Positions 9,453 to 28,954 of a stretch of 64,000 nt of DNA are shown one piece after another. Made by a program: the position numbers and the translations under genes. A model generated the notes under the pieces. That model was not told where the DNA came from, did not search any database, and saw nothing but the letters and a program-made list of their open reading frames with translations. Each line of letters opens with the position of its first letter. Positions within the stretch are counted from its first letter, which is position 1. Origin of the DNA: a virus (Duplodnaviria; Caudoviricetes); the IMG/VR virus record IMGVR_UViG_3300037501_000255. One strand, written 5' to 3'.

Positions 9453-11924
9453 CTAGCATTTAGACGAACCGCAATCCTTGCATGTTAAACACCCTTCGGC
9501 GTACATGACATTCTTTGAGCCGCAGTCTTTGCACTTAACGCCGGTTGTCGCACCATCGGCAATATATTTTTTAAGCACCCGAGAAAGAACCTTATTGATG
9601 TCAGTTATATTTCCATCTTTATTCAACTGAGCCACAACAAATTCAACGTTGACCCCGTGACGCAAGGACATTGAGATCATTCTAGTTGCCCAGGCTGACT
9701 CTGGATTATCGAATGTATTGACGATATTCTTAACAACAAGCTCCTCCTCTCCGTCTGGAAGATGCAGGCTGTATGTTCCATGCTTGATCTTTTTAATGAA
9801 GCCACCCTTTAACTTGGAGGGCAGTATCAGATTCTCTGCTGCGCCAGCAAAGATTTCATATGGCTTACCGTTCATGAGTCCAACAAGAATGACCCATTTG
9901 ATGCCCTTTACTGTTACATGATGTATCTCGCACGGCAGTGTTTCAGGCCGCTTCGGGGCATGTGTTGGCTGAATTTCTGTTGGTCGACCATCAGAGTCGG
10001 TTTTGGGGCCGACATCTGCGGCAACAAGAACTCCGCTCCTGCAGCTATCGCGATAAACAGTAATCCCCTTGCAACCAGACTTCCAGCCTCTACGGTAAAC
10101 CCTGTCAACATCAGCCTTAGATGCGCTATTTGGAAGATTAGTCGTCTTGGAAATAGCATGGCATACCCATTTCTGCGCCGCAGCCTGCAGATCAACTGCA
10201 GCCTCCCAGTCAATCTCGTTTGCTGTCGCCTTGTTGTACGGGCTCTGCTCTACATCGGATTTGCCAGTAATCTCCATCCATTTCGTTACACCGTGATGAT
10301 ATACGGTATACTCTTGCCACTTATCTCCCATATGATCTACAAAATCAACTCGCGCATCCTTATCATTAGGATTGATCTTCTTACGACGCTTGTAGTGAGT
10401 CATAAATACCGGCTCGATACCGCTAGTCGTCTGGGTTAGGGTAGATACAGAGCCTGTGGGAGCGGTGGTTGTGAGTGCTATATTTCTACGGCCGTGCTTG
10501 AGGTACAACTTGTGTAGCTCAGGGTCTGCATCCCAAATTCTTTGCAGGAATTTATGCCCCTTCTCTTTTTTAAGGTTAAAAATCGGGAATGCACCACGCT
10601 CACGAGCCATGATTACACTGGAGCGGTATGCTCCCAGGGCCATAGTCATATATATGGATTCTACCGCAGCAATACTCGCATCTGAGCCGTAGCGTAAGCC
10701 GAGCGCTGCAACCGTATCGCCGATAGCTGTTACCCCAAGACCGGTACGACGGCCATTTATAGCTGCAGTCCGGATACGCTGCCAAAGCACACGCTCGATC
10801 AGCTTTACCTCTTCGGGCTCTGGATCTGTATCAATTTTAGCAAGCACTTTATCTACTTGTTCAATTTCTAAATCAATCAAGTCATCCATAAGACGCTGTG
10901 CCTTCTCAGCGTCGGACTTGAATGCTTCAAAATCGAAGCTTGCCTGTTTAGTAAATGGATTTTTGACATATGAAAAGGTGTTTAGAATCATCAGACGGCA
11001 TGAATCATATTCAGACAGAATTATTTCGCCACATGGATTTGTACTCTTCGAACCAAAGCCTTCCTCGGTATATACGTCGGCAGGCGTATTCTCAAGTGCG
11101 GTATCCCAAAATAAACATCCTGGCTCAGCACTCGCATGCGCAGCTTCAACGAATTCATCCCAAATCTGCTTAGCATCTACCATTTCCTCAATAATATGCT
11201 TGGCATCTTTAGCTACAGGAAATCGTAGCTGCACTTGTGTGCCAGCCTCAACAGCGGAAAGAAATTCATCGCTCCAGCGAACAGATATGTTGGCACCAGT
11301 TACCTTTTTAAGGTCTCTCTTGATATTTATAAAGGTTCGAATCTCTGGATGGTGGCAGTTAATTGTTAGCATCAGAGCGCCACGTCGACCGCCCTGAGCG
11401 ACCTCGCGGCAAGTGTTAGAGAACCGCTCCATAAATACAGCAATGCCATCAGTTGTCCCTGCCGCATTTTGTGTAGTGAGGCCCTTGGGGCGAATAGTTG
11501 AGATATCGAAACCTACACCACCTCGCCTCTTCATAATCTGAGCTTCTTGCTGATCTGTGAACAACAGACCGCCGTAGGAGTCTGACGGTGCGGGGATAAC
11601 AAAACAATTGCTTGCAGACTGTAATTTATATGGATTCCCCAATGCACTCATTGGGGAGCCTTGGGGCACAACACGCCTAAATTCTTTGAAGAGTTCAAAA
11701 ATCTCATCTTCACTCATGGGATTAGGATACTTTGCCTCAATTCTGGCAAATTCCTTAGCCAGCCTACGGTGCATATCATGAGGAGTTGCTTCAAGCAGCC
11801 TACCATCATTATCACGCAATGCGTATTTGTTTATGAAAACTGATGCGGCTAGTTCATCGCCGCCAAAATAATTCTTAGATAATTGCATTGCCTCTTCAAC
11901 TGAAACGACCATGTTGCTCTCCAT
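9453..11924 (-). CDS. nrdJ: Class II (adenosylcobalamin-dependent) ribonucleotide reductase with TSCPD-like and Zn-ribbon C-terminus
   Basis: SNCF, RRGALM, NPCGEIIL, RRTGLGV, TTAPTGSVS, KGITVYRD. C-terminus CKDCGS...CLTCKDCGSSKC. No intein seen, and no beta-subunit gene nearby. Confidence 0.93.
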   Translation of the reverse strand: MESNMVVSVEEAMQLSKNYFGGDELAASVFINKYALRDNDGRLLEATPHDMHRRLAKEFARIEAKYPNPMSEDEIFELFKEFRRVVPQGSPMSALGNPYKLQSASNCFVIPAPSDSYGGLLFTDQQEAQIMKRRGGVGFDISTIRPKGLTTQNAAGTTDGIAVFMERFSNTCREVAQGGRRGALMLTINCHHPEIRTFINIKRDLKKVTGANISVRWSDEFLSAVEAGTQVQLRFPVAKDAKHIIEEMVDAKQIWDEFVEAAHASAEPGCLFWDTALENTPADVYTEEGFGSKSTNPCGEIILSEYDSCRLMILNTFSYVKNPFTKQASFDFEAFKSDAEKAQRLMDDLIDLEIEQVDKVLAKIDTDPEPEEVKLIERVLWQRIRTAAINGRRTGLGVTAIGDTVAALGLRYGSDASIAAVESIYMTMALGAYRSSVIMARERGAFPIFNLKKEKGHKFLQRIWDADPELHKLYLKHGRRNIALTTTAPTGSVSTLTQTTSGIEPVFMTHYKRRKKINPNDKDARVDFVDHMGDKWQEYTVYHHGVTKWMEITGKSDVEQSPYNKATANEIDWEAAVDLQAAAQKWVCHAISKTTNLPNSASKADVDRVYRRGWKSGCKGITVYRDSCRSGVLVAADVGPKTDSDGRPTEIQPTHAPKRPETLPCEIHHVTVKGIKWVILVGLMNGKPYEIFAGAAENLILPSKLKGGFIKKIKHGTYSLHLPDGEEELVVKNIVNTFDNPESAWATRMISMSLRHGVNVEFVVAQLNKDGNITDINKVLSRVLKKYIADGATTGVKCKDCGSKNVMYAEGCLTCKDCGSSKC

Positions 11925-12415
11925 TACAAATCAACTTCCTGTAATTCATTCATTGCGTTCAAAACTTGTCTGCCGGTACGCAGAGCGTATTTGATAGTGT
12001 TATATGTACCACCGCTTTTGCGCCCTTCCCAAAAACATATCATTATGTGGGATTTGTCGACTATCTGGCGATCCCTAATGTGATAATTCGCAGGCCTATA
12101 GACCTTTCCTACAATACTGGTTGACTTCGCTCTCAGTGCATGTGATAAAAGAAGCTCGGCTTCCTCTCTAGTCCAAAATTTGCCTTGAATATCTGCCGGA
12201 AATGGCAGAAAGAGATTGTACGAGATATTCTTCTCAATGCAGGCCTGCGCTACCCACATGTCCGCACCAATGCAGCCGCCAAGATTAAATTCTGCATTGT
12301 GAAAAGTGTGAGCGCAATACTCAACAAGGAGATTTGCTATCTCCTTGGCGTACTCGACATTTGCAAATCCTGTCGGTCTATGCCCCGTCACACCTATCTG
12401 TGGTACAAACATCAT
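11924..12415 (-). CDS. SLOG-superfamily (YspA/DUF1273-like) protein
   Basis: IGVTGHRP, GGCIGADMW, RDRQIVDKS, FWEGRKSGGTYNTIKYA. Confidence 0.8.
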   Translation of the reverse strand: MMFVPQIGVTGHRPTGFANVEYAKEIANLLVEYCAHTFHNAEFNLGGCIGADMWVAQACIEKNISYNLFLPFPADIQGKFWTREEAELLLSHALRAKSTSIVGKVYRPANYHIRDRQIVDKSHIMICFWEGRKSGGTYNTIKYALRTGRQVLNAMNELQEVDL

Positions 12416-13018
12416 TTACCTTTTCATGGCTGCAGGTACTGCCCCGTTAGTCTTTTGCTTCTGCTGGCGCAGTTTTGGCCGTAGAATGCTCAGTAATCCG
12501 GCAGTTCCAAACGCAGTAAGTGCTACTGCGAATAGATCAGCATTCGACCCATCACTTTTTTCCTCCGATTGAACCCCGCCATCAGCTATACTCAAGACAG
12601 TAGTCTGGCCATCTCTAGCTATGAAGATTGGAGAATTAGTAGCGGGGTTATCGTTTATGAGCCGAGCTGAATGGAGCATTTCATGTTCGTATATGGTGTC
12701 AACATGCATGCCGTCTCTCCAGTATTGATGTACGCCTTGCACTGTATCAATTACAGCGGGGCCATCCGTGCGGTGATATTTTCCGTTAACTACCCAGGCC
12801 ATTGAACCATCGGCAAAGAAGATGGCGGGGCCGCTATCGCTGTGGATTGTGAGCTGCAGGTCTCGCTGATAATAATCAAAGTACAGAATGCCATCACTGG
12901 AGAGAAGAATTTGCTCTCCTCCAGTGTTCGCGTAGTCGAAATATATGTGAAAGGGGCGGTCTGACCTGACAAGGCGAATTTGAGAAAGAGAACGCTCGTC
13001 AATCGTCGGGCTCACCAT
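12416..13018 (-). CDS. HRxDGPA-repeat protein with C-terminal membrane anchor (family member 1)
   Basis: HSDSGPA and HRTDGPA repeats. C-terminus LFAVALTAFGTAGLLSIL followed by RPKLRQQKQK. Confidence 0.75.
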   Translation of the reverse strand: MVSPTIDERSLSQIRLVRSDRPFHIYFDYANTGGEQILLSSDGILYFDYYQRDLQLTIHSDSGPAIFFADGSMAWVVNGKYHRTDGPAVIDTVQGVHQYWRDGMHVDTIYEHEMLHSARLINDNPATNSPIFIARDGQTTVLSIADGGVQSEEKSDGSNADLFAVALTAFGTAGLLSILRPKLRQQKQKTNGAVPAAMKR

Positions 13019-13304
13019 ATGTATCTCTTACCTGTTGTTCGCCAAATATATTATCTAACGTTTTGGAATCCTCGTTTAAAGCCTCTTTGCCTATCTGGGC
13101 ATACATCTCTTGTAACTCAGGATTCATCTTTTTCTGCACATATTCAATTGTATTAGCATATTGCACATCAACGCGAAATTTGCTGAAAATTTTACAGTAA
13201 TTGTTTGATCCACAGGCCGGGCATGCTGGATTTACTCCGCCCATATATACAAAATGCTCCTTCTTAAACTCACAATCCTTACATCGAAAATCAAAGAGCG
13301 GCAT
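12999..13304 (-). CDS. FmdB-family zinc-ribbon protein
   Basis: MPLFDFRCKDC...CPACGS. Confidence 0.85.
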   Translation of the reverse strand: MPLFDFRCKDCEFKKEHFVYMGGVNPACPACGSNNYCKIFSKFRVDVQYANTIEYVQKKMNPELQEMYAQIGKEALNEDSKTLDNIFGEQQVRDTYGEPDD

Positions 13305-15546
13305 GTGTTACCTCGCGATTTCGTACTTCCTGTTTCTTTGCGGAGGAGGGTTTTGCTGCTCCGGATAGATAAGAGACCAATGCAGCTATTCCTAAGGCGC
13401 CAATGGCTGTAACCCATGAGCTGCTATCATCAGTGTTGGCCACAGCCTCATCTTGCTCAGTCACCTCATTCGCGTCCAGCACAAAGGCATACTGTATCGG
13501 TATAGCGGGGGTGCCCTGTAACGATACACGCAGTACTCCCGGATCTTCTGAATCTCTCTCGACCTTCACATCCGGTTCGTTGTCAAGATCTTTTAGAATA
13601 TTCTCTATTCTTTTTTTAACACTATCTATATCAATATGCTTAATATCGTTACCGATATACCTACTCATGCTTTCCTTCAGAAGTTGCTTGACGCGCGCCT
13701 CCTGCTCTTCTGGGCTTAAGTGATCTACTTTGAATTGCATTTCTAGTTGTTCCATAGCCTCCTCAACCTCTTCGGCCGTAAAGAATGGAGCCTCAGAATT
13801 ATGCGCAGCAGTGTGGGTCGTCGCCGAGCGAAGCGCCTCTTCACGCACGGCGCGTTCGTGCATTCTGCGGACACTAGCCGCTACCGACTCACCTGTACCA
13901 CCATCGTCCTCGGCGGCATCCCTAATGGCTGAACGATCGTCTATTAAATTATTAGATGCGATACCTTTTAGGTAAAAAATTTTTGAATTAACTAGATAGT
14001 TGCCAATAACAGATATTTGGCTGTTATCTTCGACCTCAATAAAAATTGTTGCATCTCTGATGATGCAATTGGCCAGCTCCACATCTCTAGTTGACTTTAT
14101 TTTGAGCGTCCCTCCGGTAATCTCGGCATCTGCTATACCTAGAGGTGTAAGCTCCCCGCGCAGGACTGCAGTTCCCGTCGCGCTAACTGTCATTCCGCCA
14201 AGAGATAACATGCGCATACTCATCATATCGGCGCTATTTTGAGGGGTTTCGGCTATTTTTATACCTTCACGATAGAATTCATACTGATTTACAGGTTTTA
14301 CATTGTATGTCTTAATCTTATAGAAAAACTTGTTATCCGGACACGGGACGCTCTTCAGAAGGTGATGGGTTGACTGTTCAAGGCCATCTCCGCCACCCCA
14401 CTTAACAGCAGGGAGGCCCAGCTCATCTCTATGTAATTTACCATTGCGCGCCCAAATTACGGTATGATCTCCATTATTCTCGACTAGAATAGCGGCAGGC
14501 AGATCTCCGTCGCGATGCCATACACCATTCTTAAAGAAAATCTGAGTTCCACATGGCAACTTTACAGCAGGCGTAGCGGAATTAAGGCTATGAAGTTTGC
14601 CATCCACATAGCAGTATTCCTCGCCGCCAGGCTTTATGAATGCCGGACCATCTTCGCGATGCATTGCACCGTTTTTGTAATATATTTTCGTACCATCTGT
14701 AAGCTCTATTGCAGGACCATCATCGCGATGTTTTATAGTCGTACCTGCCACATACCAAAAACGATTTCCCTGTAAATCTTGAAGACAATAGCCACGCTCG
14801 TCATCGTGCACTACAGTCGCTTCAAGTCTAGTAGCCATGAAATGCGCAATTGATGCCCGATTCTGGCCATCAGCCGAGATTCCTCTTGAAAAGATTGTTT
14901 TTGGTTGCTCACTTGCCCTGCCTCTGTGATAATATAATGTTTCGTCTCCATTTATTACAGCTGGCCCATCTTCGCGGTGTATACGACCGTGCTGTACCCA
15001 AATAGACGTTCCACCGGGAAGCGTGATTGCCGGGCCATCCGTTCGATGAATATGACCATTTTGTATATATACTGACGTACCGTCATCAAATTCAAGAGCT
15101 GGAGCTCCATCGCGATGAGGTACTCCATTCTCACACCAGCACGTATACTTGATGTTAGTGTCCGGAATCAACATCTCTACTGCCGGTCCATCCGTGCGGT
15201 GCAGCACTCCAGTCTTGAAATACATTTTAGAATGATCGGTGACTAACGCAGGGCCGTCTGTCCTGTGCAAATTTCCATACTGATACCAAAATTCGTGGCC
15301 ATCGGCGTTTATCATGGCAGGGCCAGATTTTCTATGCAAAAGGTGCGAGTCTTGTAGGCGATACTCGGTTGTATTATCAGAGGCTGTCTTTTCCAGGACG
15401 ACCTCCGTCGCATCTTCTACATCAAACTTACCGAGAAATGTAACAATATCCTCTCCGGCAAGCGAGCGTGGTGGAGAGGCCAGCGTGCTTAAAATTCCAC
15501 GTATGCTGTCTACTACAGCATTGTATTTATCTTTGTTTAATGACAT
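13291..15546 (-). CDS. HRxDGPA-repeat protein with a tail-sheath C-terminal-like domain and a C-terminal membrane anchor (family member 2)
   Basis: About 11 H-R-x-D-G-P-A-type repeats and a short beta-solenoid. Segment 13480-13701 aligns with the C-terminus of the sheath. Anchor WVTAIGALGIAALVSYL followed by a basic tail. Confidence 0.75.
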   Translation of the reverse strand: MSLNKDKYNAVVDSIRGILSTLASPPRSLAGEDIVTFLGKFDVEDATEVVLEKTASDNTTEYRLQDSHLLHRKSGPAMINADGHEFWYQYGNLHRTDGPALVTDHSKMYFKTGVLHRTDGPAVEMLIPDTNIKYTCWCENGVPHRDGAPALEFDDGTSVYIQNGHIHRTDGPAITLPGGTSIWVQHGRIHREDGPAVINGDETLYYHRGRASEQPKTIFSRGISADGQNRASIAHFMATRLEATVVHDDERGYCLQDLQGNRFWYVAGTTIKHRDDGPAIELTDGTKIYYKNGAMHREDGPAFIKPGGEEYCYVDGKLHSLNSATPAVKLPCGTQIFFKNGVWHRDGDLPAAILVENNGDHTVIWARNGKLHRDELGLPAVKWGGGDGLEQSTHHLLKSVPCPDNKFFYKIKTYNVKPVNQYEFYREGIKIAETPQNSADMMSMRMLSLGGMTVSATGTAVLRGELTPLGIADAEITGGTLKIKSTRDVELANCIIRDATIFIEVEDNSQISVIGNYLVNSKIFYLKGIASNNLIDDRSAIRDAAEDDGGTGESVAASVRRMHERAVREEALRSATTHTAAHNSEAPFFTAEEVEEAMEQLEMQFKVDHLSPEEQEARVKQLLKESMSRYIGNDIKHIDIDSVKKRIENILKDLDNEPDVKVERDSEDPGVLRVSLQGTPAIPIQYAFVLDANEVTEQDEAVANTDDSSSWVTAIGALGIAALVSYLSGAAKPSSAKKQEVRNREVTHAAL
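14400..15345 (-). repeat. Protein-level array of about 22-aa [LI]HRxDGPA repeats (MORN-variant/YwqK-like beta-hairpins) in two blocks (6 and 5)
   Basis: HRKSGPA, HRTDGPA x3, HRDGAPA, HREDGPA x2, HRDDGPA, HSLNSATPA, HRDGDLPA, HRDELGLPA, read directly from the translation. Confidence 0.85.
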
Positions 15547-16339
15547 GTGCTAATGTGCGCTCCTCTTTCTTCGTCTTTTTCTTTGCCTTAGTAGCGGCAA
15601 TTAGGCCGGCGAAGGCTAGGCAGGCGGCAGCACTTGCAGCTAAGCCGCCTGCCCCCTCTTCTACCACGTCTTCCTCAAGAATATCGTCTGCATCGCTTCT
15701 AATATAGTCCAAAAGTTGCTCAAGTTCCTCGTCTGATGGCATGGTCTCAGAAATACGTATCTTATCTGAGTCGTATTCCCTGCCATTATTATCCACAATC
15801 TGTACAGAGGAGGCCGACATATTCGAACCGATGATAAATATCTCTGGATTTATATCAGAGATTATCATTATCTTTGTGTCCACAAACTGTGAATTTATTA
15901 TAGCAATTCTCTTAAACGATCCACGTATAGTCATTTGGCCAGGATAATCACTTAGCGGAAGAGGAGAGAACTTTACTCTGTTTAGGATAACGTACTGCAG
16001 ATCTGCATCGGCTTCCATATTATACATTAACTCACCCTCATATTCAATGTCATATAGCTCTCGCGGATCTAGCCTGCGCGACATTCTCCTAAAAATCCCA
16101 TTTCCACACATAGCTGCCGCACGTCGATAGTATAGATCACCATTCTCATGACCGGCTAGAGAACTAAGGGCGTGATAAATCTCGAGGTCAGGCTCTTCCG
16201 TCAGTCGAGTAACACTCTTTGTATGGCTATTTAGCAGATATTTGTGCCCATGAACATCATAGAAGATCGAGCCATCAGGATGAAACTCTCGTCTCTCAAT
16301 GCGACACTGAGCTATCTCTTTCTCTGTGGTATAAGGCAT
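15527..16339 (-). CDS. Hypothetical protein with C-terminal membrane anchor (family member 3)
   Basis: Acidic linker, then GGLAASAAACLAFAGLIAA, then TKAKKKTKK. Shares segments with members 2, 4 and 5. Confidence 0.7.
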   Translation of the reverse strand: MPYTTEKEIAQCRIERREFHPDGSIFYDVHGHKYLLNSHTKSVTRLTEEPDLEIYHALSSLAGHENGDLYYRRAAAMCGNGIFRRMSRRLDPRELYDIEYEGELMYNMEADADLQYVILNRVKFSPLPLSDYPGQMTIRGSFKRIAIINSQFVDTKIMIISDINPEIFIIGSNMSASSVQIVDNNGREYDSDKIRISETMPSDEELEQLLDYIRSDADDILEEDVVEEGAGGLAASAAACLAFAGLIAATKAKKKTKKEERTLAHVIKQR

Positions 16340-17541
16340 TCTTTCTCCTCGAGACTCTTCTTTTGTACTACTTTCTTTGTTTTATACATCTTGCTCAACA
16401 TACCTACCCCTGCCGCCAAAGCCAGTGGTAGCGTCCACGAGAAAATTCCTTCCGGACCATCGGACTCTTTTACCTCTGGTTCAACCTTATCCTGCTGCGG
16501 TGAAGAGAATTCCTTGTATTCCATGGGCAGATCTAGTCTGCCAGAATCCTCTATAGCCGACGACAATATATCCACGCTATCTTTTTCTGGTGACATCATT
16601 GTGAAACATGCCGAAGGATCACATTTATGTATTCCGAATGTTGCCAAGTATAGTTCATATGGTATATCCACATCCCCGGCATCCATAACGTATAGCGATG
16701 AGCCCTCTTCTTGTAATGAACCATGAATTGCAGAGAAGTCATCTGTAGTCATAGCATCTCCGGCCAAAGCATGATAGATTCCTATAGCCGCTGCGCGGCG
16801 CTCATATCCGTGCTTAAGAGATGCCAGATCATTGAGCAGCTCGATCACCTGCAGCGAGGTGCCGCGTTCATACGCCTTTGATGATATGATGCTCCTGAAT
16901 ATCCTCCAAGCATCAATGTATGCCTTATATGCGGTGCGGCGGGCAACGACCTCTCTCATTTTAGATCGAGTTTTTTGTTTACTCATAAATTCAGCCTTTG
17001 ATAGTCTTTTGCCATTTAGGTAGTAGCTCGTTCTATTGGTTAAATGATTTATCTTAGCTGGGCCGTCGGGATTATGCAGTTTCCCGTTGTAATAGAACAT
17101 TTCTTCTGTTGTAGATTTGTTTGAGGCAATTACTGCCGGCCCACCAACACGATGGAGTGTCCCATTAATCATCCAAGCCGTATATGAACCGTCACTTGTC
17201 TCTACTGCCGGCCCATCGGTCCTATGCGGTTTGCGTGTTTGGCGACTCTTCCAGATCCGCTGCAGCGCTCCGTTTGGCAGGTAGTGGTAGTGGGGCTCAA
17301 TTTTGACGCGCTCACAATACTGTTCGTACGTTAGTCTTTGACCGTCACAGTAATACAGTTCTTTGCCATCACTAGTGACGATTGCTGGGCCCGACTCGCA
17401 ATGAATAGGTGAGCCACCAACAGTCTCTATGGCAACACCAAAAGTATCGCACGTGCTTTCTACCAAATACTCTTTAACATTACGGACTTTGCCGTCACGT
17501 GTTTTAATCACCGTCATTTTCTGAGCTGACATGTTCCACAC
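16312..17541 (-). CDS. HRxDGPA-repeat protein with C-terminal membrane anchor (family member 4)
   Basis: HCESGPA, HRTDGPA, HRVGGPA, HNPDGPA. Anchor IFSWTLPLALAAGVGML followed by KMYKTKKVVQKK. Confidence 0.75.
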   Translation of the reverse strand: MWNMSAQKMTVIKTRDGKVRNVKEYLVESTCDTFGVAIETVGGSPIHCESGPAIVTSDGKELYYCDGQRLTYEQYCERVKIEPHYHYLPNGALQRIWKSRQTRKPHRTDGPAVETSDGSYTAWMINGTLHRVGGPAVIASNKSTTEEMFYYNGKLHNPDGPAKINHLTNRTSYYLNGKRLSKAEFMSKQKTRSKMREVVARRTAYKAYIDAWRIFRSIISSKAYERGTSLQVIELLNDLASLKHGYERRAAAIGIYHALAGDAMTTDDFSAIHGSLQEEGSSLYVMDAGDVDIPYELYLATFGIHKCDPSACFTMMSPEKDSVDILSSAIEDSGRLDLPMEYKEFSSPQQDKVEPEVKESDGPEGIFSWTLPLALAAGVGMLSKMYKTKKVVQKKSLEEKECLIPQRKR

Positions 17542-18958
17542 CTATAAAGTCATCCAATTGCTCAACTAATTCTGAGGCTGCAGATGGATCGTATACCCTC
17601 ATCTTACCGAAATCTTTTACAAATTGCAATTCGCCCTTCTCCGCATCACGCATTTTGACAATTTGAAATGGCATATCTTGGTATTGATGCTCATTATCCC
17701 TGCTCTCGATAACGAATACCATGTTGGCATTTTGTGATATGCCTGAAGCTCGCGCAAGCCTTGTGGTATTGTACTTTTGATTATTTAGTGAGTGACTAGC
17801 ATTATTAGGACGATTTACTTGACATGGTGTTACTATAGGAACATCATAAATTCGGGCCAGTTCATGCAAGCCGGCAGCAATATCGCCCTGAGCCTTCCAG
17901 TCCGCTTCGTCCTCGGCACCCTTCATTAGTCCGATATAATCGACTACAACAAGATCTACATCCATTGACTCTTTGACTTCGAGTAACTTTGCCTCAACGT
18001 CATCGACACCCACACCTCTAGGCATGTCTGCCACGAACAACTTCTTCTGCTTATCATATTCTTTGATAAACTTACATGCTTTCTTGAATGAATTCATGTC
18101 TTCGGCCTGAAGCTGTCCCCGTCTAAGATCGCCAAATGGCAGCTTGCCGATACAGGAAACCATTCTCTTGTTTAGGTAGGCGCTGCTGGATGCCTGACCT
18201 CTGTTTGAGCGCGGCATTTCCAATGAGATGTACAGAATATTATTCCCATCATCTTTAAAGTCTGCCGGTGCCGTATCAATTGTATTGCTGCCCATCCAAG
18301 CATTGATTGCCCAATTCATTGATACAAGAGATTTACCTGATCCCTCAAAACCCGCAATAATGATCAGCTCTCCGCCGAAGAAGCCATTAGTGAGATTATC
18401 TAGGCTATCGAAGCGCGTTAGTACACCCTTGAAGTCCTGCGGACTTGTGGCGATGTGATTGTATTCTTTAAAAATGTTGACTATATCCTCGCCGAGAGTT
18501 CCCTCATCAAGTGCCTTGCCTTGGCTTATTAGATTAATCTCGCGGTGGGCATCAGTGAGGCGCTTATTTAACTCGCGAATATCCATATTAGCCGAAAGTC
18601 CGGCACCAAGACTGCTGGAGAGTTCTGAAACTAAGGCTTTATTGTACCTGTCTTTAAGTAGTTTAAGGTAAAATTTGAAATCAGTCTCTGGACCGGTCTG
18701 TATGCCTAGAACTTCTTGGTACTGATTTCCAATCTTTGTCTTCAGTGCCCCATAACCCGCAGCATCGCAATACTGCATCATAGCCTGTGGGCTTAGAACC
18801 TCCTTGATAGATGGCTCCAGAAATGCTGAGTGGAGGATAGTAAAGAAGTCTCTAAACTCTGCTGAAAAGTACCCCGCTTTAACTGAGCGTGATAATTCCA
18901 TCATACTTTTTCGGCTACGCACAGCATAGCTAAGTATTGTCTGATCTAAATTATTCAT
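17504..18958 (-). CDS. dnaB: Replicative DNA helicase, DnaB family
   Basis: IIIAGFEGSGKSL Walker A, LYISLEM, VVVDYIGLM, PCQVNR, VKMRD. Confidence 0.92.
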   Translation of the reverse strand: MNNLDQTILSYAVRSRKSMMELSRSVKAGYFSAEFRDFFTILHSAFLEPSIKEVLSPQAMMQYCDAAGYGALKTKIGNQYQEVLGIQTGPETDFKFYLKLLKDRYNKALVSELSSSLGAGLSANMDIRELNKRLTDAHREINLISQGKALDEGTLGEDIVNIFKEYNHIATSPQDFKGVLTRFDSLDNLTNGFFGGELIIIAGFEGSGKSLVSMNWAINAWMGSNTIDTAPADFKDDGNNILYISLEMPRSNRGQASSSAYLNKRMVSCIGKLPFGDLRRGQLQAEDMNSFKKACKFIKEYDKQKKLFVADMPRGVGVDDVEAKLLEVKESMDVDLVVVDYIGLMKGAEDEADWKAQGDIAAGLHELARIYDVPIVTPCQVNRPNNASHSLNNQKYNTTRLARASGISQNANMVFVIESRDNEHQYQDMPFQIVKMRDAEKGELQFVKDFGKMRVYDPSAASELVEQLDDFIGVEHVSSENDGD

Positions 18959-19638
18959 TTCTCCGCCACCCTAGACTTAATTCGGTGATCTACGCCAAGT
19001 GATACAATAGTTTTTACAGACTGTGAGCTAATCGACTCGAATATCTTCTTAAATTGCCCAGTAAAAGCCTCGTTCAGAGAAGAGTGATTTGTCGCGAATA
19101 ATATCGGTAGTCTATTCTGTACTCTATATCTAAACACGCGCTCGAAGGAGCGACCGAAGAAATTCTCAGAAGATTCGGTATCTGCAAAGTGTCGCGAGTC
19201 TACTTCATCTATACAAAGAAAATCTACATTGATCAGCTTATGATAAAATGTGGTTTTGTATGTATGGTCTGCCAGGTATGAGGCTATGTCCGAAAGCGAT
19301 GTGTAGTATGAAGTATAGCCACTCTTTAGCGCCGCCTTGAGGATAGTGCAGGCGCTCATTGTCTTCCCCGTCCCCGGCGAACCAGCATAGCATATCGATT
19401 GTCCGCCACGATACATATCGTCGATGTGTTCAACATACGCCTCTGTACTCTTTTTTATATGATCAGAGCCGGCGAAGTTTTTATAGGACAACATCCAGTA
19501 CGCTTCTGGTATATTTGCGTCCGCCATCGAATCTATGAATGAACGCATCGGAGTGCACTTCGCACAGCCGGTCTTACAGCCACACTTTTTACTAATCTCG
19601 GATTTCGCTAGCTGCTTCTTCCTCTCGATGACCGACAT
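18955..19638 (-). CDS. DnaC/DnaI/IstB-like AAA+ helicase loader
   Basis: CGCKTGCAKC Zn motif, YAGSPGTGKT, LCIDEVD, ATN. Start set at ATG 19638 (GGAGG RBS). Confidence 0.88.
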   Translation of the reverse strand: MSVIERKKQLAKSEISKKCGCKTGCAKCTPMRSFIDSMADANIPEAYWMLSYKNFAGSDHIKKSTEAYVEHIDDMYRGGQSICYAGSPGTGKTMSACTILKAALKSGYTSYYTSLSDIASYLADHTYKTTFYHKLINVDFLCIDEVDSRHFADTESSENFFGRSFERVFRYRVQNRLPILFATNHSSLNEAFTGQFKKIFESISSQSVKTIVSLGVDHRIKSRVAEK

Positions 19639-20329
19639 TGTCGTCCTCCATATTATCATTCACTTCGGATAGCGGCACGGGGCGCTCAAACGGCGAGCTT
19701 GACATTGAGAAGTCTGTGGGTAGGCGCATTGATAGACGACCAGTGCGAGGTGCTCCGAACTTCGTTGCGGCCGTAGCTATCTGGTTAACTAAATTCACCT
19801 TAGCTTGAATGTCCGCCATAGCAGCGTCCTTCTTTTCCGAATCTGTAGTGATAGTGATATTTGAGCCATCCAGTACGATATCTTTAACTACAAAAGAGCC
19901 TAGCACCGTCTTGATTTCTGAATTGGTAAATATTAGCTTCGCCAAATCTGGCGTCCAGCGAGATTGCTCTATAAGCGCTCTGTCTACGCCATCAATTGTG
20001 AACAATCTATTTAGTGCGCCAGTAAATGCTACCGTAATTGATGTCTTTGCAGGCATTTGCGGTTGAATTGGGTTTGGTGACGGAGATATTGGATGTAATT
20101 GTACCGGCCGGAATTGATCGTCGTCATCGGGGCCGTCGCTTGGTGGAGCTGGTGGAGGCGCGGTATCTACGGCTGGAATTTCTTCCACATACAGAACGTT
20201 CTCCCACAATATTTTACGACGAATAACATCTTGAACTATAACAAGGTATCTTTCGTCCTCGAAAAGCAGTCTGCCAACTACGGCATGGGGACGGGGCACT
20301 CCTGGTATCTTGAGAAATACTTTTAGCAT
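19592..20329 (-). CDS. Hypothetical protein with a possible Sm/SH3-like N-terminal domain and a Pro-rich linker
   Basis: VVGRLLFEDERYLVIVQ...KILWENVLYVE beta pattern, followed by PPPAPPSDGPDDDD. Confidence 0.6.
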   Translation of the reverse strand: MLKVFLKIPGVPRPHAVVGRLLFEDERYLVIVQDVIRRKILWENVLYVEEIPAVDTAPPPAPPSDGPDDDDQFRPVQLHPISPSPNPIQPQMPAKTSITVAFTGALNRLFTIDGVDRALIEQSRWTPDLAKLIFTNSEIKTVLGSFVVKDIVLDGSNITITTDSEKKDAAMADIQAKVNLVNQIATAATKFGAPRTGRLSMRLPTDFSMSSSPFERPVPLSEVNDNMEDDNVGHREEEAASEIRD

Positions 20330-21046
20330 TCATTCACTCCAACCAACTATATTCATCTTCTCGTCGACTATATTATTGAAACGCAGTCGATCGACGAATG
20401 TCTTGAAATCCGGCACGGCATCAAGATGCCCGTCGCGATACGCGAGAAGTGCCATCCTTAGTTCGCCGAAGTCGCGAAGGGACACGATATTTAATACCTC
20501 AGGACAGTTGTCCTGTATCCATGAGATCATCTTTTCAGGTAGTGGTTTGTCGCGAGTGATCTTTCTGGCTTTGTTGCGATAAAATTTGAACTCCTGCACT
20601 AAGTCCGGCACCGTCAAAAAGCTTAGACTTGTTATTTTTTTATTCTTCTTAGAGACCTTGTTAGTAAATATCCAATCTATATACTCCTTGCTAAGCAGCG
20701 CATCATTTCCAAGCATTGCGTATACTTTCCTAATACAGAAGATCTCCACACCGTTGAATAGTCCACGATCATTTAGTGAAAATGTAAACGAAAAGCCGTA
20801 ATATCGCTTATATTGCTCAGCAAAATAGCCTAAAAGGCATACGAGGTGGTCTTTCTTTGAATCCCACTTCTGAGGATCTTGCCAAAATGAGGAATAGCTA
20901 TCGCGCCAGCGTCTCCAATCATCAATTACCTTTCCGCAGTTGCTGCACTCAAGCCACGGCGTATTATCATCATCATAGCGAATATTGAAAATACCAACAT
21001 CGCGGCATGCGGCGGTATCGTGAATAATCGGCTTTTTCTTGCTCAT
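20330..21046 (-). CDS. Hypothetical Zn-ribbon protein, possible replication initiator
   Basis: LECSNCG motif. Lies two genes upstream of the DnaC-like loader. The function is inferred from position only. Confidence 0.5.
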   Translation of the reverse strand: MSKKKPIIHDTAACRDVGIFNIRYDDDNTPWLECSNCGKVIDDWRRWRDSYSSFWQDPQKWDSKKDHLVCLLGYFAEQYKRYYGFSFTFSLNDRGLFNGVEIFCIRKVYAMLGNDALLSKEYIDWIFTNKVSKKNKKITSLSFLTVPDLVQEFKFYRNKARKITRDKPLPEKMISWIQDNCPEVLNIVSLRDFGELRMALLAYRDGHLDAVPDFKTFVDRLRFNNIVDEKMNIVGWSE

Positions 21047-22557
21047 TACAACTTACCCTTTTTTGATAGGTATTTGTGCATGTCTGGGCCAGTCTTCACT
21101 GCAAAGGCAGGCTCAGACTTATATATATCATAGCGCAATACTGAGTGATCCTTCATAAAGTGCGTCTGATCGAATGTCTCTATTATGAATGCGTCTCGCT
21201 TGTTTGATTCGGGATTTGTGCGGATTACTCTCCCAACCCGCTGAAGCGCCTTGGCGGTACTCTTGCCACCAGCGCACGGGATGAGCGCATCGAGCTCCTT
21301 AATATCTACGCCTTGGTCATAGATGGTGCTGGCAACCAGGATATCGATAAGGCCGGCTCGGTAGTCATCTCGTATTTTTTCTCTCTCCGAGGCTCGCATT
21401 CGTCCATTGACAAGTCTTACTCGAATATCCGCAGGCATCTTCTCAATTAACCTCTCGCCGTGAGAGATTTCGCGATAAAGCATTAGTGGTCGACGACCCA
21501 TCTCTAGTAGCTTTAAAGTGTTACTAACGAGCATGCCGTCCCTTACATCATTGTCATTAATGTATTTCTTCTTAACATCTCGCCACTGCTTTTCTATAAA
21601 TGACTCATATTTGGGTATATCTCTAAAGATAATCTTTGGCTGTGCAAGATAGCCCTTCTCAATTAATTCGGATGCAGTGATGTCGCATATTCGCGGTCCA
21701 AAAGCAGCCTCGAGGAGAATATCATCTCCTGATGTTCTCCATGGTGTTGCTGTAAATCCAAGACGGTATGAGGCGTCCTTGCTTTCGCGCAAAATGAGGC
21801 GTATGGACTGGGCTGCTGCAAACTGCGCTTCATCAAGAATTATTACTTTAGATGAGTGTATTGCATCAAGTATGTCCCGTTTCTGCTTTTCATTTGGCGT
21901 CCAGCGCTCAACGTCTTCTTCATCAAGTGCCTTGATTGCCTGACCGCATGCCGTGCCAGCTGTCCATACACTGCATACATTTATTTTTCGTATCTCGCAT
22001 TTCCCACCGCCTATTATGCCGACATCAAGGCCTGTGGCGTCCGCGATAGTTTCATGCATTTGATTTAGCAGCTCCAAACTGACTACGTATACCATTGTCG
22101 GTAGATTCAGTTGCCCTACGATATTAGCTATCGCATAAGTCTTTCCGGAGCCGGTGGGCGATTTTATCATACCACGCTTTTTATCTAGGGCCATGTCCGT
22201 TATTCGAATCTGGTGGGGGTAGAGCTTTGGGCCCAGATACGGAGCCGGTTTGAGGCGCTCCTCATAGCGTATATTGTTTACTATCTCAACTTCAATTCCA
22301 AATCCCCTAAGTGCCGTATGTACCTTTTCTACCAGTCCAGATGGGAATTTGAGAGTGCGTGTAAGAAGTCGATTTTTACCGTCCCACCCGCCTGTTTTAT
22401 ATTGCAGTTGGAATTTATAACCGGGCTCAGAGTATGATAATAGATCAGATATCGCATCTATTATTTCAAGTTGCGTTAGACCTTCAATTTGAGTATAGAC
22501 TGAACTTACTATTAGTTTAACCACATTGCCTGGCCAATTAAGACACATAAGGGCCAT
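21046..22557 (-). CDS. Superfamily 2 helicase (UvsW/XPB-like)
   Basis: SPTGSGKT, ILDEAQ, GFTATPWR, YDQGVDI, QRVGRVIR. Confidence 0.92.
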   Translation of the reverse strand: MALMCLNWPGNVVKLIVSSVYTQIEGLTQLEIIDAISDLLSYSEPGYKFQLQYKTGGWDGKNRLLTRTLKFPSGLVEKVHTALRGFGIEVEIVNNIRYEERLKPAPYLGPKLYPHQIRITDMALDKKRGMIKSPTGSGKTYAIANIVGQLNLPTMVYVVSLELLNQMHETIADATGLDVGIIGGGKCEIRKINVCSVWTAGTACGQAIKALDEEDVERWTPNEKQKRDILDAIHSSKVIILDEAQFAAAQSIRLILRESKDASYRLGFTATPWRTSGDDILLEAAFGPRICDITASELIEKGYLAQPKIIFRDIPKYESFIEKQWRDVKKKYINDNDVRDGMLVSNTLKLLEMGRRPLMLYREISHGERLIEKMPADIRVRLVNGRMRASEREKIRDDYRAGLIDILVASTIYDQGVDIKELDALIPCAGGKSTAKALQRVGRVIRTNPESNKRDAFIIETFDQTHFMKDHSVLRYDIYKSEPAFAVKTGPDMHKYLSKKGKL

Positions 22558-22595
22558 ATTTCAGGCCCCTCCGTGTTGGGTTGTAACGCAGCTGT

Positions 22596-24059
22596 TTAGC
22601 GGCGCCTATCTAAAATGTCCTTGCGTGAAGCTGAGATTAGCTTGCCAACAGCGCTTTTGTTTTTGCGTATCTTGTCAAGCATCTTATCTGCCGCAGTGGT
22701 AGTTCTATCTTTGTTTAGTCCGACATTCATCTTGTCTGCAGACATCTTCTTCTTGTCTACTAGGGCAGACATGTGGCGATCTGCTTCCTTCTTGAGCGAA
22801 TCAACGCGCTCGCGCGGGAGCCCCATTCCACTGAATATGAAGTAGATCTGTATATCATCATTATCTGATGGAACTTGGTATATGCCCTTGAATACGCGAG
22901 CTGAGCTGTACTCATCTGCAATGAACTTAAATATGAATGAAATCGACTGTGTCGGCACTCTATCTAGCACCTCTTGGCGCGCAGTTACGAGAATGCCGAC
23001 GCTTTGAGCTTCTTTGAGGTCAAAGCCGCTGGCCAATAGACCATGCTCGAGATTGTCGGAGATTGCGGACACTAGAGCAAGGTCATTGCTCTCATACTCA
23101 TCTCTTGAAATACGATTGGAGCCGAAGAGTACGCAATTGCCTGCTTCCAGCAGTGATTTTGCTAAATCCATCGGATCAAGAGATTCTAGATTTGATGGTT
23201 GTGAGGCTAGAGCATTAAACATATGCAGAGGCTCAACAATAGCGTTGTTGGCGACTTTCCAGAATTGAGCAGGGCCCAGATTTGAGTAGGCGAGCTCAAT
23301 TTTGGCATTATCCACGAGAACTAGCGAATTAATTACCTCTTTCGAGGCCATGTCCGCCATCTCGGATAGCACCTGTACAGCATTGAATTTAGACTGACTG
23401 TCGTCCGTTGAGCCGGGCAGTACCAGCATTACTATTACTGGCTTTCCAAATGTCGCAAGCAGGCTTGCAATTGTACTGGCGCTTCCTGCGCCGGTACCGC
23501 CGCCAGCCGATGCACACAATACAAGTACGTCAGCCTCTGCAATATGCTCGGTAATGAATGTTTTGACATGTTCAAAGTTGTCTTCTATGGCAGCACGAGC
23601 TACTTCCAAATCCTTACCTGTTCCGCCAAGGGAGTAGTTCATGAAGAATTTGCGACCCTCAGGAATTTCCAGCAGCTCAAGATCCTGCTTTGCGGTATTT
23701 ACAGCGCAAACGTCGTACCCAAGGTCATAAAAGACCTTGGCTAACTTGCCGCCGGCCTGACCGGAGCCGATTACACCAAAACGAAGAGACACTCGCCTCT
23801 CAACTGTTTTTGGCTTTGGCTGCTCGGTACCAGAAGACTCGCGCTGGGCCTTCTTTTGCTCTAGGAATTTTTCAAAATCCTGATTTCTAATTGCTTCTTT
23901 TGTTGGGTCTGTCATCTCTGGTCTCCCGTGACTTAATAGTATTTTTAGTTGTTCATTTTCTTTTATTATTTGAGCTTCGGACTTGATGTACGTAGTACGG
24001 GTGTCCTCATCAATTATTACAACTCTAGACGACTTATTTTCACTCATTGCGCGCCTCAT
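22596..24059 (-). CDS. Tubulin/FtsZ-superfamily GTPase
   Basis: FGVIGSGQAGGKLA, AVNTAKQDL, GTGKD, signature AGGGTGAG, LVDN, T7-like SLDPMD. Probable start MSENK at 24047. Confidence 0.92.
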   Translation of the reverse strand: MRRAMSENKSSRVVIIDEDTRTTYIKSEAQIIKENEQLKILLSHGRPEMTDPTKEAIRNQDFEKFLEQKKAQRESSGTEQPKPKTVERRVSLRFGVIGSGQAGGKLAKVFYDLGYDVCAVNTAKQDLELLEIPEGRKFFMNYSLGGTGKDLEVARAAIEDNFEHVKTFITEHIAEADVLVLCASAGGGTGAGSASTIASLLATFGKPVIVMLVLPGSTDDSQSKFNAVQVLSEMADMASKEVINSLVLVDNAKIELAYSNLGPAQFWKVANNAIVEPLHMFNALASQPSNLESLDPMDLAKSLLEAGNCVLFGSNRISRDEYESNDLALVSAISDNLEHGLLASGFDLKEAQSVGILVTARQEVLDRVPTQSISFIFKFIADEYSSARVFKGIYQVPSDNDDIQIYFIFSGMGLPRERVDSLKKEADRHMSALVDKKKMSADKMNVGLNKDRTTTAADKMLDKIRKNKSAVGKLISASRKDILDRRR

Positions 24060-27334: not shown

Positions 27335-28472
27335 TAATCCTCCCTGTTGATTTTGCAAGTGCCAAAATCTTGTCTAGTGCAAGATTCCAGGTATATTGGG
27401 GCGCAGTTTTAGCCATTTCAGGCTTCATCTTAATACACACATCGCTATAATTTTCATAAACATACCGCAACTTCTCGCCAAAATCCACAGGGTCAGGATT
27501 TCCCGTAGTTGCACCTGGGGTTACACCCCAGTATTGCTCTTGCGGAAGAGCTTTTCTTACACCGCAACGCGTAAGTATAGAGTTGGAATCATTTAAGAAA
27601 TCTAGTTGGCCGCCGAAACGGGGGGCTACAACCGGCAAGCCGCAGGAGAGTGCCTCTAAGAAGGGCATCCCCCACCCTTCAGATGCAGTCATAAGCGCAA
27701 ATGCATTGCAGGCCGTATATAGGGATGCCATGTTATCCACTTTCTTATTGACTATACAGATTTCTGGCATCATTTTACCATATTTCTTAGACAATTGATT
27801 TAACTTCGGTCTCAAGTCAACCTCGAAGGGCTTGACTTGCTCTCCATTTTTGAATATTTTAGTTTTAAGAACCAGGCACACATCGTCATCTACAGCAAAT
27901 GTTTTACAAAATACATCTAGTAGGGCAGGCAATTGTTTTCTGTAGTGCGGGGCTGCAACGCATAGAAATTTGAATTTCTTTTGTGTTGGAAGCTCTGCAG
28001 GCGGCGCTGATGGGTTAAATAGACCCAGATCTATTCCGTGATGTACGACGTGTATCTTTTCCGAGGGGCATCCGTTGCGGCGGAACATGTCGGCAACATA
28101 GTTGCTGGATGGAAGCACGAAATCAACTAGGTGGTAGAATTTTTTCCAGCCTGCAGGCATATGACTTGATTCATAGTCGTATAGTGCCATCTTAACTTTT
28201 GATGATGTTAAGAATCTTTGTTGGAAATTCTGTGGTACAGTGAATACTATATCGATATCATATGGTATTCCCTTCCTTATCATATGTCGTTCTGATAGCA
28301 TCGCATCGGAATTCCTCTTTTCATTCCAATACATCATCCCATTAGTACCATTTGTTGATATGAAATCTACCGCATGACCGCGAAGCTCCGCAGCGTGCAG
28401 TAATTCCTCCATAACCACAGACCATGATAGGTCTGCGGCTCCCCAGGTAAAACTTCGTATCCTCATTGTCAC
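27306..28472 (-). CDS. Glycosyltransferase family 4 (GT-B fold)
   Basis: HVVHHGID, KFKFLCV, EGWGMPFLEALSCGLPVV (EX7E motif). Confidence 0.92.
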   Translation of the reverse strand: MTMRIRSFTWGAADLSWSVVMEELLHAAELRGHAVDFISTNGTNGMMYWNEKRNSDAMLSERHMIRKGIPYDIDIVFTVPQNFQQRFLTSSKVKMALYDYESSHMPAGWKKFYHLVDFVLPSSNYVADMFRRNGCPSEKIHVVHHGIDLGLFNPSAPPAELPTQKKFKFLCVAAPHYRKQLPALLDVFCKTFAVDDDVCLVLKTKIFKNGEQVKPFEVDLRPKLNQLSKKYGKMMPEICIVNKKVDNMASLYTACNAFALMTASEGWGMPFLEALSCGLPVVAPRFGGQLDFLNDSNSILTRCGVRKALPQEQYWGVTPGATTGNPDPVDFGEKLRYVYENYSDVCIKMKPEMAKTAPQYTWNLALDKILALAKSTGRIIEEEDSQKT

Positions 28473-28954
28473 CTATTCTTGACAGTTGCTTGGTGTTGAT
28501 GTTCGCTGAGCTTCATAGCTGGTTTCTGCTTCTTTTGGACCTTTTGTTTTTTATTATTCGATCCAAGCAGTGAGGCCAGGCCTGCGATAGTTACGCATGC
28601 AATGGCTAGGCGTGCAATGCTTTCCGTGGCTGGGGTACTATCACTATCCTCTCTGGGCGACAGGTCGTCTTCTGACATATCTAGGACGGAGTAAAGCATA
28701 ACCTCGGCGCCCGCGCGGCGGGCCTCTTCTATGAATTCCTGCTGCAAATGCAACGTATATTCGTCTGTATATAGCTCTCTTGGATCCCACATTGCAATGA
28801 TGAACTTGGAGATTTCCTCTCCGAATGCGCCAGCATGTACATCCAATTTTACTGAACGAATGCCTCCGACCATATAGCCGTTATAGTGCACACTCGTCTT
28901 GCCCATAGAAGCATCTAGCGCCATTTTAATCTCGATATTATTGCCCAGCTTCAT
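28469..28954 (-). CDS. Hypothetical protein with C-terminal membrane anchor (family member 5, detached from the array)
   Basis: IARLAIACVTIAGLASLLG followed by NNKKQKVQKKQK. Shares DPRELYxxEY with member 3. Confidence 0.7.
   Translation of the reverse strand: MKLGNNIEIKMALDASMGKTSVHYNGYMVGGIRSVKLDVHAGAFGEEISKFIIAMWDPRELYTDEYTLHLQQEFIEEARRAGAEVMLYSVLDMSEDDLSPREDSDSTPATESIARLAIACVTIAGLASLLGSNNKKQKVQKKQKPAMKLSEHQHQATVKNR

Follow-up and report, generated by a model that had tools for sequence, protein, structure and literature searches.

A conserved cassette of proteins with candidate C-terminal membrane anchors in the replication operon of a tubulin-encoding jumbo phage

The 64,000-nucleotide stretch of phage DNA analyzed in this work (Duplodnaviria, Caudoviricetes; hereafter the window) belongs to the IMG/VR virus record IMGVR_UViG_3300037501_000255 and encodes, between its ribonucleotide reductase and its DnaB-like helicase, four proteins, M1 to M4, that share one C-terminal design, i.e., an acidic linker, a single uncharged helix and a basic tail. 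A fifth protein of the same design, M5, is encoded elsewhere in the window. According to our favored reading, to which a probability of roughly 0.45 is given, M1–M5 constitute a conserved set of C-terminally membrane-anchored, cytoplasm-facing tethers or scaffolds of a clade of tubulin-encoding jumbo phages. The four open reading frames (ORFs) that an earlier note on this DNA had placed at positions 12416, 13291, 15527 and 16312, between nrdJ and dnaB, are present there on the minus strand, namely M1 (12416–13018, 200 aa), M2 (13291–15546, 751 aa), M3 (15527–16339, 270 aa) and M4 (16312–17541, 409 aa from a GTG start, probably 406 aa from the ATG at 17532). Of the genome-wide search for further members that this note had proposed, the 97-kb record was covered with the Kyte-Doolittle scale, and there it added only M5 (28469–28954, 161 aa). 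The phage tubulin lies 5 kb from the M1–M4 cassette in the same gene string, and almost every long ORF of the window, including all genes treated here, is on the minus strand. The window strand corresponds itself to the minus strand of the 97-kb record, for which the CheckV completeness is 23%. Since proteins identical to those of the window are also encoded on a contig of 367,953 bp, the window originates from a jumbo phage of about 370 kb.

The C-terminal helices were located by scanning all ORFs of the 97-kb record for hydropathy, using both the classical criterion (mean of at least 1.6 over 19 residues) and a 17-residue window. In line with the earlier note, which had seen no obvious signal peptide, none of M1–M4 has an N-terminal hydrophobic segment. 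Each contains one such segment, ending 20–27 residues before the C-terminus. The putative anchor helices span aa 160–180 in M1 (12479–12541), aa 708–731 in M2 (13354–13425), aa 229–251 in M3 (15587–15655), aa 364–382 in M4 (16396–16452) and aa 112–132 in M5 (28559–28621), where a tail of 29 aa follows. The 19-residue threshold is reached by M1, M2, M3 and M5, and no second stretch with a hydropathy of 1.6 or more occurs in any of the five proteins. Among the 77 tiled genes of the record, tail-anchor-like proteins are encoded by four at this threshold and by five, M4 being added, when 17 residues are considered. M1–M4 account for four out of five consecutive genes, the remaining one coding for a zinc-ribbon protein.

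Anchor statistics were then computed over 36 cassette proteins, comprising M1–M5 and their orthologues. The uncharged run has a mean length of 19.4 residues, a content of 49% Ala, Gly or Ser and a mean hydropathy of 1.70. Its hydrophobic moment is 0.39, i.e., the helix is not amphipathic, and such a low moment at this hydropathy points to a spanning rather than a surface helix. The net charge is −4.3 in the 20 residues preceding the helix and +4.4 in the tail of 11–30 residues. Besides, the helices vary in flavor with their position in the cassette, following SW..(A/G)..G in M2 and M4, AAC(L/V)..AG in M3 and M5, and VALTA in M1. These position-specific types go beyond generic greasiness and suggest a specific packing of the helices. 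From these sequence features, “membrane anchor” is a well-founded inference for the C-terminal helices of M1–M5. Sorting signals combine a signal peptide, a signature before a C-terminal helix and a short basic cluster. Signals of this kind (sortase LPXTG, PEP-CTERM, GlyGly-CTERM) were considered and rejected, because the M proteins have no N-terminal hydrophobic segment, no signature before their helices, tails of 11–30 aa instead of 3–6 aa, and large N-domains. Holins were rejected as well, given these large N-domains and the lack of a signal peptide.

The gene order DnaB, M4, M3, M2, zinc-ribbon protein, M1, SLOG protein, ribonucleotide reductase is kept in six further metagenomic contigs, i.e., in seven lineages with the window. 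The related contigs are L004 (Hainich groundwater), L006/L007, L008, L009, L015 (108 kb) and the 83-kb contig of P0018. Their M2 orthologues were recovered through the neighbors of M3, as a region search with M2 residues 420–751 returned M2 itself only. Acidic linker, uncharged helix and basic tail are found at nearly every M position, even where N-terminal parts have been lost or swapped, which indicates that the anchor is under selection. The C-terminal design that the earlier note had recognized in the sequence is strongly conserved at syntenic positions in the six contigs. M1–M4 are 42–47% identical to their L006/L007 orthologues, vs. 56–88% for the operon neighbors, and 13–31% identical to those of the distant L015, vs. 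40–75% for the neighbors. By this measure, no other genes of the operon evolve as fast as M1–M4, whose position, order and anchors nevertheless remain fixed. Whole modules are also gained and lost between relatives: the M4-position proteins of L008 and L015 contain no repeats, and M2 varies in length from 530 to 817 aa. The term “diversifying family” proposed initially therefore holds for fast sequence change and for module gain and loss, but not for a free patchwork, each member having 1:1 positional orthologues.

Outside these contigs, a close cultured relative is absent, DnaB being at most 30% identical to any phage record searched. A megablast of the region against the phage collection gave no match, the matches of M2 in tblastn were limited to isolated repeats of jumbo and other phages, and no relative came up when IMG/VR was scanned for patterns of M3, of M4 and of the M3 alignment. 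Scans of M1–M5 against Pfam, PHROGs, NCBIfam and PADLOC gave nothing at curated cut-offs, with only weak sub-threshold Pfam matches and no enzyme or defense family. A literature search for tail-anchored proteins in jumbo phages, or for HRxDGPA, HREDGPA or DUF6745, yielded no relevant paper. The cassette is real, conserved and apparently undescribed in the literature.

The N-terminal parts of M1, M2 and M4 are related through HRxDGPA repeats with a period of about 23 aa, of which there are 2 in M1, about 11 in M2 (aa 66–380) and 4 in M4. This module, already pointed out in the earlier note, was confirmed by BLASTP, with E-values from 1e-6 to 3e-11, and by profile comparison with hhalign (M4 vs. 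M2: probability 98.6%, E 5e-16; M1 vs. M2: probability 98.5%, E 2e-15). The AlphaFold2 (AF2) model of M4, built from 11 sequences with a predicted local distance difference test score (pLDDT) of 76.4, shows serial beta-hairpins over aa 10–180, followed by a 40-residue helix (aa 182–221), a helical domain up to aa 346, a disordered acidic linker, the anchor and a Lys-rich tail. Its top Foldseek match in the PDB was Toxoplasma gondii MORN1 (6t69), with a non-significant E-value of 0.033, and junctophilin-2 was found lower in the list. The ESM Atlas neighbors of M4 are clusters of phage proteins; in some of these, 14–62% of the members have MORN_2 or DUF6745, and the clusters with MORN_2 (PF07661) in 15–62% of members have TM-scores of 0.49–0.51 to M4. 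In Pfam, MORN_2 was matched by M4 only, at 14.6 bits for a cut-off of 29.6 bits, and the MORN gathering score was not reached; precomputed matches to PF07661 or PF20530 exist for some of the distant HRxDGPA proteins. Judging from the model and these matches, the HRxDGPA unit is a MORN-like variant of a 23-residue beta-hairpin, common in phage and metagenomic proteins, where it usually occurs without an anchor.

The helical domain of M4 is conserved in all lineages, with Y256, H257, F269, D287, Y298, F313 and T314 being invariant. A fold search with this domain gave generic helical hairpins only (Z of 7.8 at most), and a protein-atlas feature search with it returned nothing. Full-length M4 orthologues are 42–59% identical, and all keep IFSW(T)LPLA(L)AAG(V)GML, in which SW..PL..AAG is invariant, followed by the Lys-rich tail. 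They begin with MS/MT..K(L/M)T(V/M)(I/L)(K/R)T; as the ATG at 17532 gives MSAQKMTVIKT..., it is a more likely start of M4 than the GTG at 17541. On the 368-kb contig, the identical protein is publicly annotated as P0005 with 286 aa only; this gene call cuts through the repeat array and is too short, since six orthologues cover 85–99% of the long form.

M1 consists of an N-domain with its two repeats, a 31-aa fiber-like segment, the acidic linker, the anchor helix and the basic tail. Its orthologues in L007, L008, L009 and L015 keep the hydrophobic helix and the basic tail, a Lys interrupting the uncharged run in L007. Over the 31 aa of residues 116–146, M1 shares 55% identity (z-score 10.9) with a repeat unit from a fiber-like protein of 777 aa, which is rich in DGY motifs and encoded outside the window (G000:C1:32-2365). 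This segment, in the region 12479–12700 (aa ~110–150), is missing from the closest M1 orthologue and replaced by an ordinary HRxDGPA repeat in more distant ones. It may reflect an exchange within the genome.

M3 is of another build. Its AF2 model (11 sequences, pLDDT 74.7, predicted TM-score 0.73) comprises N-terminal hairpins, a right-handed beta-helix (aa 75–200, 15740–16117), a short helix, a disordered acidic linker and an isolated C-terminal helix, which precedes a Lys-rich tail. The pLDDT of the beta-helix, including aa 120–200, is about 90. The fold matches generic beta-helices only, i.e., TSP3 of CBA120 (Z 7.2), the CARP domains of CAP and TBCC (Z 5.8–6.1), pentapeptide proteins and bactofilin (Z 4.8). 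The M3 family counts 9 representatives among 1.84 billion proteins, and helix and basic tail are kept down to 34% identity in all but P0047, the most distant relative, whose tail is not basic.

The earlier note had further proposed a patchwork of shared modules, including a beta-solenoid common to M2 and M3 and the motif L-x-SL..H..Y-x-RRAAA common to M3 and M4. Neither was significant in profile comparison. For the solenoid, hhalign probabilities were 4.2%, in another register than the alignment given in the note, and 11.7%, and the Smith-Waterman z-score was 3.2, with 20 of 2000 shuffles as good. The 11.7% match, obtained when the M2 orthologues were added, sets the N-terminal hairpin of M3 against one repeat unit. 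For the motif, BLASTP gave E-values of 1.3–2.3 in the 97-kb ORF set, hhalign linked M3 and M4 through the anchor only (probability 8.8%), and hand-picked windows gave a z-score of 4.7. RRAAA is not kept in the M3 orthologues, which read RRAVV, RPTVV, SPKLL and RPVCV. According to the models, LYYRR of M3 belongs to a loop of low confidence and a beta-strand starts at A75, as opposed to a helix in M4. The motif is thus treated as a chance similarity. With two of the three proposed modules lacking significance, the “mosaic” reduces to one repeat family (M1, M2 and M4) and a common anchor design, with otherwise unrelated cargo.

Apart from the cassette, M5 is encoded between a virion-like protein of 922 aa and a GT4 glycosyltransferase, and its orthologue P0051 (58% identical) has the same anchor and the same neighbors. 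A tube-like reading of M5 was unsupported, all ESM Atlas structure matches being below a TM-score of 0.5 and unrelated to tail tubes. M3 and M5 are linked by hhalign through the anchor only (probability 32–44%), and the motif DPRELY..EY that they have in common is marginal (z-score 4.3, 6 of 2000 shuffles as good).

M2 is the largest member. It is composed of the HRxDGPA repeats, a probable short beta-helix (aa ~440–545, of which aa 480–526 match the Pfam Beta_helix PF13229 below threshold, at 17.9 vs. 25.9 bits), an acidic helical linker, a module at residues ~610–695 (13462–13719), a further acidic linker, the anchor and a basic tail. Its orthologues are 739, 817 and 530 aa long. When M2 560–705 was compared by BLASTP with every ORF of the record, the best non-self match was the phage's own tail sheath (57197–59761, 854 aa; PHROG sheath families, E 1e-12), with an E-value of 2.6e-4. 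The local score of this pair is 8.8 sd above shuffles, none of 2000 being as good. In hhalign, three aligned M2 orthologues match the final ~70 residues of the sheath (probability 64%, E 6.4e-5), both following the order helix, beta-hairpin, strand. The L007 orthologue matches phrog_279, annotated “tail sheath” (E 0.0034), and no sheath model of Pfam or PHROG was matched by M2 of the window itself. In the ESM Atlas model of M2 (whole-protein pLDDT 0.55), residues 610–695 have TM-scores of 0.61 to a GPW_gp25 cluster (99% of members), 0.57 to a cluster with 42% Phage_sheath_1C and 0.42 to a cluster with 52% Sheath_initiator, over 79–85 residues. These four lines, weak singly, are concordant together, and M2 ~610–695 is likely a gp25/sheath-C-like module, located about 15 residues before the anchor. 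A Glu-Pro-Arg motif is typical of gp25 and TssE. It is not kept in M2 and its orthologues, which have EDPG, EDGT or TNPV instead, and the L015 orthologue has only a reduced form of the module or none.

From these data, the following mechanism can be proposed. After translation, the helix and the polybasic tail would fix each M protein to the cytoplasmic membrane, and the large N-terminal part would stay in the cytoplasm on a flexible acidic leash. Indeed, N-domains of 110–710 aa without signal peptide make export implausible. The N-terminal parts would be binding modules and not enzymes, with MORN-like arrays in M1, M2 and M4, a beta-helix in M3 and probably in M2, a helical domain in M4 and a gp25/sheath-C “handshake” module in M2. 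From DnaB to the ribonucleotide reductase, neighboring genes overlap by 14–38 nt or abut, in a string that starts at the tubulin, hence the M proteins are probably made together with the replication proteins. The anchor helices, as their position-specific types suggest, would pack into a defined hetero-oligomer. The resulting complex would be a membrane platform for two kinds of cargo, namely replicating DNA or the replisome on the one hand and, held via M2, subunits of the sheath or tail on the other, the former being suggested by the operon context and the latter by the M2 module.

Several observations weigh against tethers of this kind, and a first group concerns hydrophobicity. M4 is below the 19-residue threshold, its 19-residue uncharged run averaging 1.47, and reaches 1.72 over 17 residues. 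A rough Hessa-type sum is positive for all helices (mean +3.2 kcal/mol), making them marginal as Sec-type transmembrane segments. In Escherichia coli, the transmembrane domain (TMD) of tail-anchored proteins can be much less hydrophobic than that of type II proteins and still insert, and moderately hydrophobic tail-anchored proteins do so unassisted (PMC6794478). By analogy, a marginal hydrophobicity is not disqualifying for a membrane anchor. It would also suit, together with the 49% of Ala, Gly and Ser, a C-terminal module acting as a protein docking or oligomerization tag instead of a lipid anchor. The small-residue helices would then form bundles, the basic tail would capture an acidic partner or nucleic acid, and the proteins would be directed to a structure made of protein, e.g., a replication compartment, the tubulin filaments or the procapsid. 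The position-specific conservation, such as the invariant SW..PL..AAG of M4, is in line with this proposal, as are the Lys-rich tails, whose ligand could be DNA or a partner protein with an acidic C-terminal tail. Nevertheless, membrane spans are classically recognized by just such uncharged runs of 15–25 residues between charges of opposite sign, an amphipathic helix that bundles would be expected to have a higher hydrophobic moment, and the AF2 models of M3 and M4 leave the helix isolated, at low confidence and not packed on the protein. A docking tag is thus considered quite unlikely, and a membrane anchor is preferred.

A second difficulty comes from the charge polarity. With acidic residues before the helix and basic ones after it, the positive-inside rule predicts a cytoplasmic C-tail, which conflicts with the classical N-in/C-out tail anchor, whereas the absence of an export signal in the hydropathy scan argues for a cytoplasmic N-domain. 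Mitochondrial-type tail anchors of eukaryotes have their tail translocated against the positive-inside rule, and this might also be the case for the M proteins. Alternatively, the helix and the polybasic tail may bind the inner leaflet without a classical span. The cargo would be cytoplasmic either way. The asymmetry could instead reflect a reversed topology, with the N-terminus outside and the basic tail in the cytoplasm, the proteins acting in the envelope after arrival from the periplasmic side, e.g., as ejected virion proteins, or after an unrecognized export. The proximity of M5 to virion and tail genes, the fiber-like segment of M1 and the sheath-like one of M2 would agree with such a location. 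This arrangement is nonetheless highly improbable: N-domains of this size have no signal peptide, M1–M4 are encoded in the replication operon and not in a structural module, and neither a folded beta-helix nor MORN-like arrays are likely to be carried across by N-tail translocation if no signal is present.

A third point is that fast evolution suits host-interface proteins at least as well as scaffolds. According to the main rival explanation, the M proteins would be anchored early proteins of a conflict module, which block superinfecting phages or neutralize membrane weapons or defenses of the host. The M2 module could then cap or mis-nucleate a type VI secretion system (T6SS), a tailocin or the tail of another phage, and proteins of the host envelope could be the targets of the MORN-like arrays. 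Many superinfection-exclusion proteins are indeed small membrane proteins made early. Besides the fast evolution of M1–M4 and the gain and loss of their modules, their probable expression together with the replication genes is consistent with this role, and a sheath-mimicking module is odd in a replication scaffold. Conflict genes, however, are usually found in variable islands, whereas M1–M4 show strict 1:1 orthology and an invariant order in a core operon over seven lineages; the M proteins match neither PADLOC models nor a known exclusion protein, and the sheath-like segment of M2 matches the phage's own sheath best. We therefore judge a conflict module unlikely and retain tethers or scaffolds as the favored role. 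The remaining points on the negative side are of different kinds. In L014, the ORF at the M2 position (839–1882, 347 aa) is made of repeats only and is the sole one without an anchor. The M2/sheath similarity is weak, with its hhalign probability of 64% and, in an ESM model of low confidence, a TM-score of 0.61 over 79 aa. Lastly, nothing ties M1–M5 physically to DNA, replisome or sheath, and no DNA- or replisome-binding module was recognized in them. Separately, the L014 ORF ends 20 nt from the end of the contig, where the M2 gene may be split or the anchor lost.

The genes surrounding the M proteins form a compact string, and across the relatives the cassette keeps an invariant synteny with DnaB, the loader, UvsW and the tubulin. 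The DnaB-like replicative helicase (17504–18958; PF03796, E 7e-32), whose end overlaps the start of M4, is preceded on the same strand by close-packed genes for an IstB/DnaC-like loader, two unknown proteins, UvsW and, at the head of the string, a TubZ/PhuZ-like tubulin (22596–24059; PF00091, E 6e-13; PF22453, E 8e-12), with a single 38-nt gap between UvsW and the tubulin. This gap contains a GC-rich hairpin (22549–22570, minus strand; 7-bp stem, 8-nt loop), which may be a terminator or an attenuator; intergenic gaps are few in the long string. A promoter and terminator scan performed no better than on shuffled sequence. The two unknown proteins (19592–21046; 245 and 238 aa), located between UvsW and the helicase loader, are 40–79% identical across relatives and have no Pfam match. 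Between M2 and M1, every relative encodes an FmdB-family zinc-ribbon protein of the CxxC_CxxC type (12999–13304, 101 aa; PF09723, E 4.7e-9; TIGR02605, E 1.2e-10), which has no anchor and an acidic C-terminal half. It is 57–70% identical across relatives, far better conserved than the anchored proteins on either side, and may serve the cassette as a regulator or as a partner in soluble form. M1 abuts a SLOG/YpsA/DprA-like protein (11924–12415; sub-threshold PF06908 and PF02481), encoded after M1 in all relatives whose contigs reach that far, and weakly matching the Shosta antitoxin model ShosA. In Bacillus, YpsA affects FtsZ-dependent division, which is of interest beside a phage tubulin. The downstream end of the string is the ribonucleotide reductase (9453–11924, an 823-aa ORF), the nrdJ of the earlier note, with ribonucleotide reductase Pfam families at this position in relatives. 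It is apparently intein-free in the window, whereas intein or homing-endonuclease domains (Intein_splicing, LAGLIDADG, Hint) are present in the reductases of L008 (9509–13039), L015 (14640–17285) and the P0018 contig.

Jumbo phages remodel the cell with tubulins, shells and vesicles, and phage-encoded membrane-tethering factors are hardly known. Here, an anchored set appears hard-wired in the replication operon of uncultured, tubulin-encoding giant phages, with a conserved position and a fast-evolving sequence. If the proposed role is true, the M proteins would be handles on where such phages replicate and assemble, and on whether their tails dock to membranes as T6SS sheaths do. A phage precedent exists in phi29, whose p16.7 is anchored at the N-terminus. 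In this phage, the membrane-associated p1 and the membrane protein p16.7 attach replicating DNA to the membrane, which makes them membrane organizers of replication (PMC4974454). The phage itself is protein-primed, has a genome of 19 kb and infects Gram-positive hosts. No similarity of its proteins to M1–M5 is expected.

The C-terminal tails of known bacterial tail-anchored proteins are very short and weakly charged, unlike those of the M proteins, which have 11–30 aa, a charge of about +4 and an acidic linker before the helix. Otherwise, M1–M5 resemble TssL/SciP of the T6SS, DjlC and Flk: a single helix lies about 30 residues or less from the C-terminal end, a signal peptide is absent, and a moderately hydrophobic TMD goes with a large N-domain expected in the cytoplasm (PMC3426401, PMC6794478). 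They differ from them in showing no sequence similarity and in forming a phage set of four to five members, mainly in one operon, and the polarity of basic tail and acidic linker represents a test case for the insertion rules of bacterial tail anchors. The T6SS also offers a precedent for a C-tail anchor beside a gp25-like protein: TssL, C-tail-anchored in the TssJLM membrane complex, adjoins the gp25-like TssE, and the baseplate containing TssE is recruited to TssJLM (PMC3426401, PMC4604203). In the gp25, TssE and sheath C-terminal domain families (PF04965, PF10934, PF17482), the counterpart of M2 ~610–695 is the end of the phage's own sheath, with which it aligns over the last ~70 residues; in M2, the module is isolated, ~85 residues long and placed inside a membrane-anchored repeat protein of a replication operon. 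By analogy with the T6SS membrane complex, the contractile tail of these phages might have a docking platform of its own at the membrane. The M proteins, kept together by their small-residue helices, would display the handshake module of M2 and further binding modules at the inner membrane, and would there nucleate or park tail or sheath assembly or tubulin-positioned replication. We regard this extension as speculative and very unlikely.

The closest architectural parallel is found in the junctophilins (PMC8934682; PDB 7rxe), which tether membrane to membrane and have the same order of parts as M4 and M2, i.e., a MORN array, a long helix, a variable or divergent region and a C-terminal anchor. 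MORN-like arrays are the repeat type of such eukaryotic membrane tethers. Junctophilins are eukaryotic, the Foldseek E-values (0.03–0.5) are not significant and the HRxDGPA consensus is a variant of its own, so that the resemblance is an architectural analogy without demonstrated common descent. In this comparison, M1–M5 would be tail-anchored MORN-type tethers, new as a phage-encoded multi-protein set with a sheath-like module. If the tail-docking platform were true, they would amount to a phage-encoded, junctophilin-like tethering system organizing the infected cell.

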